Source of the DNA: Deltaproteobacteria bacterium
GTDB taxonomy: Bacteria > Myxococcota_A > Polyangia > Fen-1088
DNA length: 64,000 nt
Assembly (NCBI GenBank): GCA_033763315.1
Contig: JANRKS010000016.1
Span: 192,001 to 256,000, forward strand
Reading direction: 5' to 3'
Positions 35,410 through 41,986 of the stretch are shown here, in pieces. Position 1 is the first letter of the stretch. Every line of letters begins with the position of its first letter. The notes under the pieces are model-generated. The model was not told the origin of the DNA. It ran no database searches and saw only the letters and a program-made list of their open reading frames with translations. Position numbers and translations under genes: made by a program.

Positions 35410-37293
35410 ATGTCCAAGAAAGCTTCACCATCTGGAAGTCACGCGCTCACCACAGTGCGCGCGGGCGCGTTGGACGCTCAGCTGGACCGTGCCGTTCCTT
35501 CTGAATCGCCCACGGCCTTCTTGATGGCCACCAAAGGCGAGATGGTGGGGCGGGTGTTCCCGCTTAAGCACAACACCATCGTGGTGGGCCGCGGGGCCGA
35601 GTGCGACATTCAGCTTACAGACGCGTCCGTGTCCACACGTCACACCCGCTTGCTCAGCCGCCCGCACGGCTTCGACGTTGAAGATCTAGGCTCCACCAAT
35701 GGCACCTTCGTGGACGATCATGCCGTCACTCGCGGCACGCTCACCTCAGGGCAACGGCTGCGCCTGGGTGCCGTTGAGTTCAAGCTGCTGTTGGATCAGC
35801 GATCGCAGCCCACGATGTTGCTTGTGCCAACGCTCGTGCAGCCAACCACGACATCGGGTGGCGCTGTGCCGCCGCGGCGCCGCTTGGAGCAAGACGTCGA
35901 GGCCGATGAAGGCGTGTCGCTGCAGGAGATGCTGGGCAAAGGCATCCGCATTTACCGCGTGGTCCGCAAACACTTCATGGCAGCCGGGATCATCTTGGGC
36001 CTCAGCTTGCTGGCAGCGGCCATCAGTGTGATTTGGCTTCCCCCAGGCTCCAGCGCCATGTGCGAAGTGAAGCTGCACCCTGAGGAGCGCACGAACCCGG
36101 TGGATCCCACCACGTCAACAGCGCCCAAAAACAAGTCTTTGTTCGAGTCGCCTGAGCGGGCATTCATCAACCCCACATTGATCGAAACGACGCTTAAAAC
36201 GTTAGGCAAGCCCGCGTACGTGGAAGAAGTTAACGCTGTGCAAGCGCGGCTCAAGCTTGAGCCTGTAAGCGAAAACGGCTACATCGCCTCCTTCAGTGAA
36301 GGGATGTTGACGCGCGGCCGGTATGATCTGGTGGCCCTGTTGACCACGCACGTGAAGACGTATGTGCAGAACGAAACGGACAAGGCCTTGAGCGTGTCGG
36401 TGGCGGAGACGGAGTTCTTGCGCGCGCAAACGGCACAAGCCGAGAAGGAACTGTCGAAGATCGATGCTGAATTGCGCACCTTCAAAGAAGAAAACCTCAG
36501 CTCGTTGCCCGAATCGGCCACACTGGCCTTGGGCTCGCGGGCGCAGATGGAAGCGCGCAAGCCAGAGCTGGTGGCGCAGCTAACGAGGCTTAAGGGCGAA
36601 ATCGCCAGCGTGAAAAGCCAAATCGCCAGCGAGGGCCCCCTTTCCCAAGGCCGCACGCAATCGTCCACCGCCCACCGCACCCGGCTGGCCGCCATTAACG
36701 AAAAGCTGGCCGAATTGCGCGCCCGAAGTCTGACCGATGAACATCCCGAAGTTCGCGCGCTCGTGGAAGAGAAGAAGTTAACCGAAGGTTTGATCAACCA
36801 AGAGCTGAGCGCGGGCCAAAACGACCTTGAACGCAAGACGAGCCCGGAACTTCACGCCTTGGAAGTGAGGCTACAGAGCTTGGAGAGCCAAGAAGCAGCC
36901 TCGCGAACCGAATTGTCTGAACTTTCGGATCGCATCCATGTGGCAAAGAAGCTGCTCACCGAGATGCCGAGGGTCGACGCTCGTCTGCAAGAACTTCTTC
37001 TCAAACAAGAAGATCAGCGCAAGCTGTATTCGCAGATGTTCGAGCAACTCAAGCGCGCCGAGGTGCGGCTGCAGCTTGAACGCGTATCGGTTTCCTCGCG
37101 TCATGAAATCACCAGTCCGCCACGACTGTGGAAGGCACGCAAAAGCAAAGTGGCTTTGCAGCGTTTCGGATTGGCCGCCGGTTTGGCTTTCGTTGTCATT
37201 GGAATAATGATTTTGGCTAAAGAGCTGCGTCCGATGGTGCAAGCGGCCTGGAACGCCGCCGAGGCCAACGAGCGCGGCGCCACGAGGAGTTGA
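35410..37293 (+). CDS. FHA-domain polysaccharide co-polymerase (Wzc/GumC/EpsV-like, no tyrosine-kinase domain)
   Basis: FHA motifs GR, SxxH, NGT; TM1; long coiled coil containing LTDEHPEV; TM2; ~25-aa tail; lies between wcaJ and the OPX gene. Confidence 0.85.
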   Translation: MSKKASPSGSHALTTVRAGALDAQLDRAVPSESPTAFLMATKGEMVGRVFPLKHNTIVVGRGAECDIQLTDASVSTRHTRLLSRPHGFDVEDLGSTNGTFVDDHAVTRGTLTSGQRLRLGAVEFKLLLDQRSQPTMLLVPTLVQPTTTSGGAVPPRRRLEQDVEADEGVSLQEMLGKGIRIYRVVRKHFMAAGIILGLSLLAAAISVIWLPPGSSAMCEVKLHPEERTNPVDPTTSTAPKNKSLFESPERAFINPTLIETTLKTLGKPAYVEEVNAVQARLKLEPVSENGYIASFSEGMLTRGRYDLVALLTTHVKTYVQNETDKALSVSVAETEFLRAQTAQAEKELSKIDAELRTFKEENLSSLPESATLALGSRAQMEARKPELVAQLTRLKGEIASVKSQIASEGPLSQGRTQSSTAHRTRLAAINEKLAELRARSLTDEHPEVRALVEEKKLTEGLINQELSAGQNDLERKTSPELHALEVRLQSLESQEAASRTELSELSDRIHVAKKLLTEMPRVDARLQELLLKQEDQRKLYSQMFEQLKRAEVRLQLERVSVSSRHEITSPPRLWKARKSKVALQRFGLAAGLAFVVIGIMILAKELRPMVQAAWNAAEANERGATRS

Positions 37294-39826: not shown

Positions 39827-41986
39827 GAGAGCGTCGGGCAAGGTGGCAGCAGCAGGCGCGGGATCCGGGGCTGCGGCGCGGCGCGAGGGAGACGTTGCGT
39901 TCATCGGCGCGGCGGCTGGCGCGGCAGCCGGCGTGGGTGCAGCGACAGGAGCCACATTGGCGACCGGCGCGGCGGGCGCAGCGGCCACGGGCGCCGATGG
40001 CGCAGGGGCTGCCGGCGATGGCGACGCCGCCGATGGCGCCGCGGGCACAGCGGCCACGGGCGCGGCGGCGGCGGGCGCGGACGTTTCAGTGTGTGGGGTG
40101 CGGCTGAGCACAATGGCCACCGCCACGGATCCCAGCGCCGCGCCGAGCAGCCCGGCCACAAACCACCCCAAGGCGAACGCCGGGCGGCCCTCCGCCTTCG
40201 AACGCCGCAATTCGGGGTCGGCGCCGTCGTTGATCTGGGGCACACCCATGCGCGGTGTGAATTGGCGCGGCAAAATCATCGTGCGTGTGGGCCCACCCGG
40301 CGGCCCCAACGGTAATTCTGCCGTGTCTTTCGGTTGCGCTTGCACCAGCGGCGCCGCGCCCTCGGTGTCGATGTCGGCGGCATCAAGCAGGATCAAGCGA
40401 CGCCGCTCCGCGAACTGTTCGCTGCCGCTGTCACGAACCCAGGTGGACACTTGCCCCGACGTCGCAAACAGGCCATTGCCGGCCGCCGCCGTCTGCAGGG
40501 CCACACGCATTTCGTCGGCACTGCGAAAGCGCGTCTCCGGGTTGCGCGAAAGGGCTCGCAAACAAACATCGTCTAAGCACGCTGGCGCGCCAAATGAACT
40601 GGGGCGATCGATCGGGCGCCGCAAAGTGTTCATCACGGTGGCCTCGAACGTTTCTTCGGCAAACAACGTTTTGCCGGTCAAAGCTGTCCACAGGACGATG
40701 CCCAGCGAGAACAGATCGGTGCGGCCGTCAATGCGCTGGCCCTGCATCTGCTCCGGCGCCATGAAGCCTGGCTTGCCCACCATGCCGCGTGCATCCAAAG
40801 ACTGCACGGCGCCGGCCGGCCTGACGCGGCCAAAGTCGGTGAGGCGCGCGCTGCCATCAACGCCAACCAAGATGTTGTCGGGCGATAAATCGCCGTGCAC
40901 CAAGCGCAACGGGCGGCCGTCGTCGTCGATGAGATCGTGCAAATACTGAAGCCCCGAAAGCACATCGCACATGACCGAGACGATTGCGGCCGCCGGGGCC
41001 GGTCGGCCCGTGCCAAGCAGCTCCTGCAGGTTCAGACCCTCAACGTAGGGCATGATTAGATACGGCTGCTGTTCATAAAGCCCGGCATCAAGCACCCCGT
41101 TGAGTTGCGGGTGGGAAAGCTTGCCGCCAATGCGCGCCTCAGTCGCAAACGCGTGCTCGGCGTCGACGGTCTTATCCAGATGTTGACGTATCACCTTGAG
41201 CGCAAACAAGCGCCGAAAACCGAAAGCGCCGGAGCGCGAACACAAATAGACAGAACCAACGCCACCTTTGGCCAAGCGCCCCACCACACGGTAAGGGCCC
41301 ACGTGAATGCGTTTCTCAAGCCCCGAGGGCGGTTCGGGCGGCGGAGCGTCCTCCACAGGAGGCTGGTTTTCCGGGTACACAAAGGAAACGTAGGGCGAGG
41401 CGCGGCGTGCCCGTGCAGCCGAAACCACTTCCATCTCGCCCGAGACGGAGCGCGGCCCGGGGGACGAGGGCGTCTCGGCGATGGGCGCCTCTGAAGGCGG
41501 GGGCGATGCAACCTCCTCGGGCGGCACCGGCGCAGGCGCAGCGACAGCCGCCTCTGCGGCCGGCGCCTCAACCATCGGGCTCGGTGTCACCGCACGGGGG
41601 CGCGCTTCGGACGGGCCAGATCCCGCCACCTGGATGGGCGCGGGCATCGGCGAGGTGCTGCGCCCTTGGGCGCCCAAGCGGGCGCGGCGCTGCTCCAGCA
41701 GCTCGGTTAAATCCATGGTGGTGCTGCCCGCGGGCGCGCCGACGTTGCTGGGCAAAGGCTCTGCAATGCCACGATCCACCAAAGCCCGTAGGATGCGTGT
41801 GGTGGCAAAACCAGGCAAGCCGCTGGAGCTGAGGATTTCGTTCACGGTTCGCCTCCCATTGACCAGCGCGCAAACCCGCGATTCATCGGCATTCAGTGTG
41901 GAGCGCTCGGCAACATCGGCCCCGCGCAGTCGTAAAACGACGCTGCCGGGAAGGCGGTTCGATGTTGATTCGTTGGTGAGCTTCAT
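39812..41986 (-). CDS. Hanks-type Ser/Thr protein kinase (N-terminal wHTH-like domain, kinase, TM, Ala/Pro tail)
   Basis: LAKGGVGSVY, ALK, TEARI, HGDLSPDN, DFG, MAPEQ, DLFSLG; C-terminal TM; start at ATG 41986. Confidence 0.9.
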   Translation of the reverse strand: MKLTNESTSNRLPGSVVLRLRGADVAERSTLNADESRVCALVNGRRTVNEILSSSGLPGFATTRILRALVDRGIAEPLPSNVGAPAGSTTMDLTELLEQRRARLGAQGRSTSPMPAPIQVAGSGPSEARPRAVTPSPMVEAPAAEAAVAAPAPVPPEEVASPPPSEAPIAETPSSPGPRSVSGEMEVVSAARARRASPYVSFVYPENQPPVEDAPPPEPPSGLEKRIHVGPYRVVGRLAKGGVGSVYLCSRSGAFGFRRLFALKVIRQHLDKTVDAEHAFATEARIGGKLSHPQLNGVLDAGLYEQQPYLIMPYVEGLNLQELLGTGRPAPAAAIVSVMCDVLSGLQYLHDLIDDDGRPLRLVHGDLSPDNILVGVDGSARLTDFGRVRPAGAVQSLDARGMVGKPGFMAPEQMQGQRIDGRTDLFSLGIVLWTALTGKTLFAEETFEATVMNTLRRPIDRPSSFGAPACLDDVCLRALSRNPETRFRSADEMRVALQTAAAGNGLFATSGQVSTWVRDSGSEQFAERRRLILLDAADIDTEGAAPLVQAQPKDTAELPLGPPGGPTRTMILPRQFTPRMGVPQINDGADPELRRSKAEGRPAFALGWFVAGLLGAALGSVAVAIVLSRTPHTETSAPAAAAPVAAVPAAPSAASPSPAAPAPSAPVAAAPAAPVANVAPVAAPTPAAAPAAAPMNATSPSRRAAAPDPAPAAATLPDALSNAP

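Follow-up and report, generated by a model that had tools for sequence, protein, structure and literature searches.

An FHA-fused polysaccharide co-polymerase linked to a Hanks-type kinase in a myxobacterial export locus

We analysed a 64,000-nucleotide stretch of DNA, here called the window, from a Deltaproteobacteria bacterium of the Polyangia (assembly GCA_033763315.1, contig JANRKS010000016.1, forward-strand positions 192,001 to 256,000). The genome spans 7.63 Mb in 40 contigs and is 90.85% complete. Within the window lies a polysaccharide export locus whose co-polymerase carries a forkhead-associated (FHA) domain, with the gene of a membrane-anchored Hanks-type Ser/Thr kinase converging on it. 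A sequence-only reading had proposed that phosphothreonine (pThr), written by this kinase and read by the FHA domain, replaces the switch provided by bacterial tyrosine kinases (BY-kinases) in co-polymerases of the PCP-2 class. We found that the FHA-fused polysaccharide co-polymerase (FHA-PCP) is genuine and conserved, and that it represents a variant of PCP-2 machinery that appears not to have been described. A functional link between the co-polymerase and the kinase is supported by comparison of related loci, and we infer that pThr may gate polymerisation or export.

The export locus and its FHA-fused co-polymerase

The features of the locus, by position in the window and with the co-polymerase and kinase first, are as follows.

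35410-37293, + strand: FHA-PCP, 627 residues, PCP-2-like without a BY-kinase domain (Pfam, NCBIfam, AlphaFold2 (AF2), Foldseek)
35470-35499, + strand: LDAQLDRAVP motif of FHA-PCP, residues 21-30, a helix predicted to dock on the kinase N-lobe (conservation, complex model)
35515-35793, + strand: FHA domain, residues 36-128 (Pfam, AF2 sandwich, Foldseek)
35812-35814, + strand: codon of Thr135, candidate phospho-acceptor in D-x-T-x-x-[LIV], where the disordered linker begins (conservation)
35974-36039, + strand: transmembrane (TM) helix 1, residues 189-210 (AF2 helix 189-209 and hydrophobic stretch)
37165-37218, + strand: TM helix 2, residues 586-603, leading into a cytoplasmic tail of 24 residues (AF2)
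39812-41986, - strand: membrane-anchored Hanks-type Ser/Thr kinase (Pkinase), converging on the export operon
33956-35368, + strand: initiating phosphoglycosyl transferase (PHPT), a WcaJ-type undecaprenyl-phosphate glucose phosphotransferase, operon gene 1 (TIGR03023; Pfam Bac_transf and CoA_binding_3)
37290-37898, + strand: short periplasmic outer-membrane polysaccharide export (OPX) protein, D1D2 type, EpsY-like, 202 residues (Poly_export and SLBB)
37913-39229, + strand: outer-membrane beta-barrel partner of the short OPX protein, EpsX/AlgE-like, 438 residues (AF2 fold, Foldseek match to AlgE)
39239-39826, + strand: 195-residue multi-pass membrane protein, final operon gene (no Pfam or NCBIfam family over threshold)
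42119-44704, - strand: GH5-like glycoside hydrolase, 861 residues, immediately upstream of the kinase (Pfam Cellulase, E 8e-6)
25095-33803: sugar-activation and glycosyltransferase genes, namely UDPGP, GT4, a hexapeptide acyltransferase, three GT2, WecG/TagA and GT4 (family matches)

The architecture of FHA-PCP was borne out in its main parts: an N-terminal FHA domain with the full set of pThr-binding residues, a helical periplasmic body between two TM helices, and a short tail. Residues 57-120 match Pfam FHA (PF00498, E 2e-15) and residues 42-126 match Yop-YscD_cpl, the best-scoring Pfam family (E 2.4e-18), with the pocket residues G60-R61, S75-x-x-H78 and N97-G98-T99 all present. An AF2 model from an alignment of 27 family members (predicted local distance difference test score, pLDDT, 76) places the strands of the FHA beta-sandwich at residues 36-128 (pLDDT 77-90) and predicts that residues 131-169 form a disordered linker (pLDDT < 50). 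Searched against the PDB with Foldseek, the FHA domain superposes on GarA, OdhI and FhaA with TM-scores of 0.85-0.93 and root-mean-square deviations of 1.1-1.7 Å. A profile search of PDB sequences returned GarA (2.6e-17) and, weakly, Wzc (1e-3) and PslE (2e-3); OdhI, FhaA, EmbR and Rv1747 are also among the sequence or fold matches of the domain. The FHA domain is thus nearest, in sequence and in fold, to proven pThr readers.

Beyond the first membrane helix, the modelled periplasmic part consists of an alpha/beta base and helices spanning residues 307-562, up to 80 residues long. The full chain matches Wzc in the Wza-Wzc complex (9r68_I; Foldseek E 2e-9, 530 columns). TIGR03007, the PEP-CTERM chain-length determinant family, aligns with residues 313-612 at E 1.7e-22 but at 79 bits, below its cut-off of 279, and FHA-PCP is the only TIGR03007-like protein of the genome. 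Wzz (PF02706) and GNVR (PF13807) match neither FHA-PCP nor any other protein of the genome, and PF13807 is carried by one of 28 close relatives. The 24-residue tail is as bare as had been claimed: the Walker A pattern G....GK[ST] is absent from the entire protein, no Tyr occurs within its last 40 residues, and there is no Tyr cluster.

The company of the gene is that of a PCP-2 system. The five + strand genes, from the PHPT to the 195-residue membrane protein, are densely packed and separated, in order, by 41, -4, 14 and 9 nt; the OPX start and the FHA-PCP stop share 4 nt. The PHPT scores 534 bits against TIGR03023, exceeding the cut-off of 411. In the OPX protein, Pfam finds only Poly_export and one SLBB domain, and its best NCBIfam match is NF041843 EpsY (143 bits, below the cut-off of 320). 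The barrel protein matched no family in Pfam and NCBIfam scans; its AF2 model has 18-19 strands (pLDDT 78.5, predicted TM-score 0.73), and its best-superposing solved relatives are AlgE structures (Foldseek query TM-score, TMq, 0.47-0.50). A short OPX protein encoded with an AlgE-like barrel agrees with the definition given in passages of PMC9601211. Among 14 compared related loci, the PHPT gene recurs in 12, the OPX gene in 13 and the barrel gene in 11. The genome's best Wzx match and its sole Wzy_C match lie 1.8-4.6 kb beyond the window end (C16:257768-260570), and on this basis we regard the pathway as Wzx/Wzy-dependent. The locus is a Wzx/Wzy-type polysaccharide assembly and export machine, with PHPT, PCP, short periplasmic OPX protein and outer-membrane beta-barrel. 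Like other PCP-2 proteins, FHA-PCP has a large and mostly helical periplasmic domain between two TM helices, and the genes for OPX, PHPT and Wzx/Wzy keep it company; the fused (PCP-2a) or adjacent (PCP-2b) BY-kinase of that class is missing.

We then asked how widely this architecture is conserved. A word-indexed search returned 28 proteins matching over most of the length, at 33-100% identity; 27 of them are annotated with FHA, and their source names are merely 'FHA domain-containing protein' or 'hypothetical'. An exhaustive profile search found 1,230 proteins at E<=1e-30 among 1.84 billion representatives, and we scored wider conservation on 111 representatives of these at 50% clustering. 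The pocket residues G60, R61, S75, H78, N97, G98 and T99 are invariant in all 27 aligned close sequences, and among the 111 representatives G60 is kept in 108, R61 in 98, S75 in 97, H78 in 107, N97 in 93 and T99 in 98. Outside the FHA domain, the N-terminal motif LDAxLDRAVP is nearly invariant in the 27 sequences and retained in about half of the 111. Thr135, directly after the last FHA strand, is invariant in 27/27; in the wider set this position is Thr in 73, Ser in 5 and a gap in 17, and Leu, Val, Ile or Met stands at +3 in 86/111. Ser170 is also invariant in the 27-sequence alignment, and the tail of the family usually ends in Arg. The Thr-rich linker QPTTTS, singled out earlier, is present at residues 144-149 but falls in a variable stretch of the alignment, which rules it out as a conserved phospho-site.

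At a family-level threshold of E<=1e-60, 72 of the 401 genomes that we sampled from the class have an FHA-PCP match, most of them in two taxonomic families (37/71 in the window's own, 31/71 in the other); the named records are metagenome-assembled genomes of Polyangia/Myxococcales. A Pfam scan of 10 variant family members found an FHA domain in five, three of which have longer linkers, and no recognisable N-terminal domain in three. None of the 10 has a P-loop (BY-) kinase domain. OPX fusions account for three variants, one FHA-PCP-OPX and two PCP-OPX without FHA. Natural single polypeptides joining PCP and OPX are P0127, P0138 and P0160, together with the region L178:9603-10925 (L numbers denote related loci), and such fusion would fix the PCP:OPX stoichiometry of those lineages at 1:1. 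One genus (G000, G158, G297) comprises a genome with FHA-PCP only, one with Wzc only and one with both, the third having a far more divergent FHA-PCP (E 3.5e-121 vs 1.8e-258); incompleteness, paralogy or recent gain and loss could each underlie this pattern.

The neighbouring Hanks-type kinase

The kinase gene lies on the - strand. Its open reading frame (ORF) runs from 39812 to 42076, and we number residues from the GTG at 42076; the start previously assigned, ATG 41986, remains the probable one because a 61%-identical orthologue (L096) aligns from there. The Pkinase domain covers residues 262-490 (Pfam E 6e-32; kinase domain coordinates 40472-41293), and a single TM helix at residues 634-657 (40106-40177) is followed by an Ala/Pro-rich tail outside the membrane. 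The earlier description of a membrane kinase on the opposite strand was correct, but its placement at the end of the export operon was not: the kinase ORF is convergent with the last + strand operon gene, overlapping it by 15 nt, is preceded on its own strand by the GH5-like gene, and stands outside the operon. Across 12 orthologues K294, E313, H394, D396, N401, D414-F-G and P441-E are invariant, so that the kinase is predicted from sequence to be active, and it is of the non-RD type because the residue before the catalytic Asp is G, A, C or S. Conservation extends to about residue 562 and the outside tail is short and variable. A juxtamembrane Thr, T599 (40280-40282), in the context T-x-x-L/M, is near-invariant (>=90%) among the 12. 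A domain of ~50 residues near the N terminus (residues 56-108; 41753-41911, - strand; consensus ER-LL-L-DGRRS ... RGI) occurs in 8 of the 12 orthologous kinases and is missing from 4; it has no Pfam match at E<=0.01.

Kinase adjacency in one genome alone means little, because this genome holds 119 Pkinase matches over cut-off in 7.63 Mb; we estimate the chance of finding some kinase within 5 kb at ~1 in 5. FHA domains are also plentiful, with 48 profile matches, 47 besides the co-polymerase. We therefore relied on related loci, for which synteny of the kinase had been set beforehand as a test that could refute the proposal. From species-representative genomes and metagenomes, 35 related loci were collapsed to 24 clusters at 90% PCP identity and scored by tblastn without composition-based statistics. 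An orthologous membrane Hanks kinase stands beside FHA-PCP in 15 of the 24 non-redundant loci, and the proposal withstood the test. Two loci are clear negatives: L107, with no kinase within 10 kb on either side, and L102, where 4.2 kb of upstream and 5.5 kb of downstream sequence contain none. A third, L120, is a weak negative, and six (L103, L105, L116, L022, L112, L115) have too little flank to score. The positives include L024 and L020, where the orthologous kinase is on an adjoining contig and the join across contig ends is our reconstruction. Composition-based BLAST statistics missed orthologous kinase domains in Ala/Pro-rich proteins, such as the L017 kinase, which scored 357 bits with the correction off; synteny counts on Ala/Pro-rich proteins need a check of this setting.

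The syntenic kinases are orthologues rather than random paralogues. Each of five syntenic kinases tested had the window kinase as its best match (272-318 bits) among 109-113 paralogue matches in the window's genome, the runner-up reaching 176-196 bits, and in two further genomes the window kinase query gave a single outlier (334 vs 182 bits and 276 vs 172 bits). The linkage appears in at least eight gene orders at PCP identities of ~31-64%. Downstream kinase genes are convergent or on the same strand; others immediately precede the PCP gene, lie upstream of the PHPT gene or diverge from it, and in yet other loci the kinase gene is separated from the PCP gene by UbiA and 4'-phosphopantetheinyl transferase (PPTase) genes, a GT2 gene or the 195-residue membrane-protein gene. 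That linkage survives so much rearrangement at this divergence points to selection for it. In one genus whose PCP lacks FHA and is fused to OPX, two informative loci, of a single lineage, had no kinase within the 13-20 kb examined.

We modelled the complex that had been suggested as a check, that of the FHA region with the kinase, using kinase residues 250-625 and PCP residues 1-185, an alignment for each, three runs and 3 controls. The complex scored 0.62 (runs 0.70, 0.62 and 0.45) against 0.00 for the best control; the score expresses model confidence, phosphate cannot be represented, and part of it may come from likeness to the solved PknB-GarA kinase-FHA complex (6i2p). In calibration the mark was reached by 58/80 solved complexes and 2/110 mismatched pairs, figures that hold only roughly here because custom alignments were used. 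At least 32% of contacts agreed from run to run, and partner pLDDT was at least 63. Two interfaces were predicted. PCP residues 17-33 contact the kinase N-lobe (257-277, 295-307 and 334-339), and PCP residues 131-140, including Thr135, contact kinase residue 398 in the catalytic loop, 430-438 before the APE motif, and 470-480. These segments are exactly the two conserved non-FHA motifs, which had been picked from the alignment before the complex was predicted. Within the FHA domain, only residues 55-56, 82-86 and 89 touch the kinase in the model, and the pocket loops are not used. The model supports binding between kinase and co-polymerase through this predicted interface.

A proposed phosphothreonine switch and its rivals

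As had been claimed, the locus holds neither a BY-kinase nor a Wzb gene: in the window, the BY-kinase profile TIGR01007, a same-genus Wzc query (728 residues, with a Tyr cluster) and the low-molecular-weight protein tyrosine phosphatase profile PF01451 were all negative. The Wzc query found no BY-kinase gene in the 35 related loci either, and the five PF01451 matches of the genome are all away from the window's contig. Across the own genome, 90.85% complete, none of six TIGR01007 matches passed the cut-off; these weak matches are MinD, ParA, FlhG-like, Mrp-like and two ParA-like proteins, all without Tyr clusters.

Genome surveys gave a different answer. BY-kinase matches over cut-off occur in 334 of the 401 sampled genomes (the tallies include unpublished genomes G364 and G332, from a family without FHA-PCP, and no conclusion depends on them). 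Within the window's own taxonomic family, hand cross-tabulation found a BY-kinase in 27/37 genomes with FHA-PCP and 24/34 without, and in the second FHA-PCP family 69/71 genomes have one. Replacement of BY-kinases by FHA-PCP at the genome level is ruled out by these numbers; for the protein and the locus, the absence of a BY-kinase stands, and the claim that FHA-PCP replaces the BY-kinase switch would have to be narrowed to the pathway, where it may hold. Where the positions of both genes are listed (14 genomes), the BY-kinase lies on another contig (13) or ~117 kb away (1). The relatives' BY-kinases sit in Wzc-sized ORFs of 720-800 residues that carry their own PCP part, and the natural reading is that each genome runs several parallel pathways, one of them using FHA-PCP.

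We favour, at a probability of roughly 0.55, a mechanism in which the dedicated kinase writes a pThr mark that the FHA domain of the co-polymerase reads, altering its assembly or export. The co-polymerase would have lost, or never had, a BY-kinase module and would instead rely on the FHA domain at its cytoplasmic N terminus, whose pThr pocket is intact; its partner would be the dedicated, co-inherited, non-RD membrane Hanks kinase. This kinase would dock on the conserved N-terminal helix of the co-polymerase (residues about 20-30) and phosphorylate the invariant Thr135 in the disordered linker right after the FHA domain. The resulting pT-x-x-L would be read by an FHA domain, most likely on a neighbouring protomer: Thr135 is only ~7 residues away from the FHA domain of its own chain, whose pocket is at the opposite end of the sandwich. 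Bacterial FHA domains prefer a hydrophobic residue at +3. Reading of the mark would change the cytoplasmic ring or the oligomeric state of the co-polymerase and, through it, polymerisation and export. Passages of PMC12004946 hold that PCP-2 function depends on oligomeric state.

A more specific version of this mechanism is conceivable, though we think it less likely than not. The Hanks kinase would phosphorylate Thr135 of each protomer, the FHA domain of the next protomer would clasp it, and the resulting head-to-tail ring under the membrane would drive assembly or disassembly of the oligomer. In Wzc, the Tyr tail of each protomer enters the kinase site of its neighbour; a daisy chain of the kind proposed here, if real, would have replaced that mechanism convergently and with different chemistry, and PCP-2 proteins would have a third mode of operation in addition to BY-kinases and BY pseudokinases.

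Several observations weigh against the favoured mechanism. Thr135 is missing or unaligned in 33/111 wider representatives, and the FHA pocket, Thr135 and the N-terminal motif are all intact in L102 and L107, which have no kinase nearby. No sensor domain could be recognised in the kinase, and the window holds no PP2C phosphatase gene, the nearest lying 168 kb before it. The related loci and genomes counted above are relatives and not independent samples, and the reservations attached to the complex score apply here too. Moreover, the FHA/kinase pair may add to a BY-kinase or pseudokinase scaffold and not replace it, because most genomes with FHA-PCP have Wzc-type BY-kinases.

The best-surviving rival, which we judge rather unlikely, keeps the kinase and changes what is read. 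Here the FHA domain would bind pThr on the autophosphorylated kinase, for example at T599, or on a different protein of the pathway (PHPT, Wzx or Wzy, for instance), and would recruit or release partners with PCP self-assembly unchanged. Many bacterial FHA proteins dock on phosphorylated kinases. The PknB-GarA structure is an example, T599 with its hydrophobic +3 residue is at least 90% conserved in the 12 kinase orthologues, and synteny and the complex prediction fit this rival equally well. Two weak points tell against it: the predicted interface avoids the FHA pocket loops, in a model blind to phosphate, and Thr135, which the model puts at the kinase cleft, matches T599 in conservation.

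A further alternative is that FHA and kinase are an added input, and that the core oligomerisation switch is worked in trans by a BY-kinase or an EcpK/HfsB-type pseudokinase binding the short, basic C-terminal tail. The Myxococcus xanthus co-polymerase EpsV is the precedent. EpsV had been cited as lacking a BY-kinase; it does lack the domain, but the view that it works without a kinase partner is outdated, as passages of PMC12004946 describe a BY pseudokinase, EcpK, that lacks Walker motifs, has its gene about 26 genes away, binds EpsV and is still needed by it. The same passages liken HfsB/HfsA to EcpK/EpsV and model the last 27 C-terminal residues of HfsA on HfsB. The BY-kinases of the 27/37 own-family genomes, and of nearly all genomes in the second family, would be at hand for such a role, and the family's usual terminal Arg would suit it. 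Set against this are the own genome's lack of a BY-kinase over cut-off and its MinD-, ParA-, FlhG- and Mrp-like weak matches, and the PCP parts that the relatives' BY-kinases bring with them; nor does any conserved small ORF of no known family occur in at least 4 of the 14 neighbourhoods. On balance we consider a switch in trans unlikely. A 239-residue ORF at 46514-47233, tried as an EcpK-like partner, has no family and no homologue in the 14 related loci, and was rejected.

YscD-type domains have generally lost their pThr-pocket residues. A phospho-independent, structural FHA domain, acting as a cytoplasmic ring or adaptor as in SctD/YscD of type III secretion with the kinase kept nearby for a different task, for example phosphorylation of the PHPT or glycosyltransferases, would account for the Yop-YscD_cpl match and for YscD/PscD-type domains among the fold matches, but is very improbable given a pocket that is invariant in 27/27 and kept in 93-108 of 111 representatives, a sequence and fold nearer GarA/OdhI/FhaA than YscD, and two informative FHA-less loci that also lack the kinase.

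Surrounding genes and known systems

Glycosyltransferase, UDP-sugar pyrophosphorylase and acyltransferase genes occupy 25095-33803 and 44641-45537, and several of those in the first block recur in related loci. The GH5-like gene upstream of the kinase is syntenic in L096 only. Homologues of the 195-residue membrane protein were found in only three of the 14 loci (L017, L021, L096), plus L115; in L017 its gene stands between those of the kinase and the PHPT. A PPTase gene, an odd companion of a polysaccharide export operon, is present in six of the 14 (L016:9002-9838, L019:9107-9874, L102:3301-4089, L107:9144-9935, L110:490-1317, L113:9125-9868), directly upstream of FHA-PCP in five; in L019 a UbiA prenyltransferase gene lies upstream of it. 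A few genes upstream of the cluster, 20559-21941 (- strand) encodes an HTH-HipA_C protein of 460 residues, a HipA-like toxin-type Ser/Thr kinase. The region 48217-63440 (+ strand), which separates the polysaccharide cluster from the Wzx and Wzy genes, encodes a non-ribosomal peptide synthetase (NRPS) of 1394 residues (C-A-T-TE, with a TubC-type docking domain) and a 3680-residue hybrid polyketide synthase/NRPS (A-T-KS-AT-aminotransferase-C-A-MT-T).

In machinery, FHA-PCP is closest to Wzc and to EpsV/EcpK. Like Wzc, the PCP-2a of Escherichia coli, it has two TM helices around a long helical periplasmic domain, with a fold match to 9r68_I, and is encoded with OPX and PHPT in a Wzx/Wzy pathway. 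Unlike Wzc, it has no C-terminal BY-kinase domain, Walker A motif or Tyr cluster; its cytoplasmic module is N-terminal and an FHA domain, and its partner is a Hanks Ser/Thr kinase in place of an autokinase and Wzb. It shares its short C-terminal tail with EpsV/EcpK of M. xanthus, the 'phosphorylation-independent PCP-2 subfamily', and with HfsA/HfsB. In contrast to EpsV/EcpK, its regulation is predicted to depend on phosphorylation, on Thr; the text of the EcpK paper (PMC12004946) does not contain the terms FHA, forkhead, threonine or Hanks.

In logic, the closest system is Rv1747/PknF of Mycobacterium tuberculosis, an envelope exporter with an N-terminal FHA domain whose gene lies beside that of its cognate Hanks kinase. 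Published abstracts describe Rv1747 as an ABC exporter fused to FHA that shares an operon with PknF and is phosphorylated by this kinase on Thr in the unstructured linker next to the FHA domain. Rv1747 is, however, an actinobacterial ABC transporter with two FHA domains, whereas FHA-PCP is a diderm Wzx/Wzy co-polymerase with one. For the FHA domain itself, GarA/OdhI and Bdellovibrio DgcB match best in sequence and structure. In GarA and OdhI, the FHA domain reads a phosphorylated Thr in the protein's own flexible tail. DgcB likewise reads its own phosphorylated N-terminal peptide, according to the title of structure entry 6hc1. These proteins differ from FHA-PCP in being soluble regulators of metabolism or cyclic di-GMP whose phospho-tail is N-terminal to the FHA domain; Thr135 lies 7 residues C-terminal to it. 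Trans-envelope machines offer another comparison. SctD/YscD of type III and Fha1/PpkA of type VI secretion resemble FHA-PCP in using an FHA or FHA-like domain as the cytoplasmic part of an inner-membrane component, and the Fha protein of type VI secretion is controlled by a membrane Hanks kinase. Unlike FHA-PCP, these are protein secretion systems, and in FHA-PCP the pocket is intact.

The earlier statement that this architecture had not been described stands for the literature searched, in which we found no publication on an FHA-fused co-polymerase (subscription journals and supplements lay outside the search). FHA is unmentioned in PMC12004946, PMC12819527 and PMC9601211, and the lipocone paper mentions it only as a VanZ fusion. 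According to passages of PMC12004946, PCP-2 proteins are thought to work by cycling their oligomeric state under a tyrosine kinase or, as work of 2025 showed, under a tyrosine pseudokinase scaffold. The FHA-PCP family would add a third PCP-2 control module, drawn from the eukaryote-like toolkit of Ser/Thr kinases and FHA domains. With a defined site to mutate (Thr135), a kinase of its own and a helix predicted to dock it, control of polysaccharide polymerisation and export by cytoplasmic signals becomes directly testable, and one of the ~100 kinases of a myxobacterial genome gains a candidate substrate.

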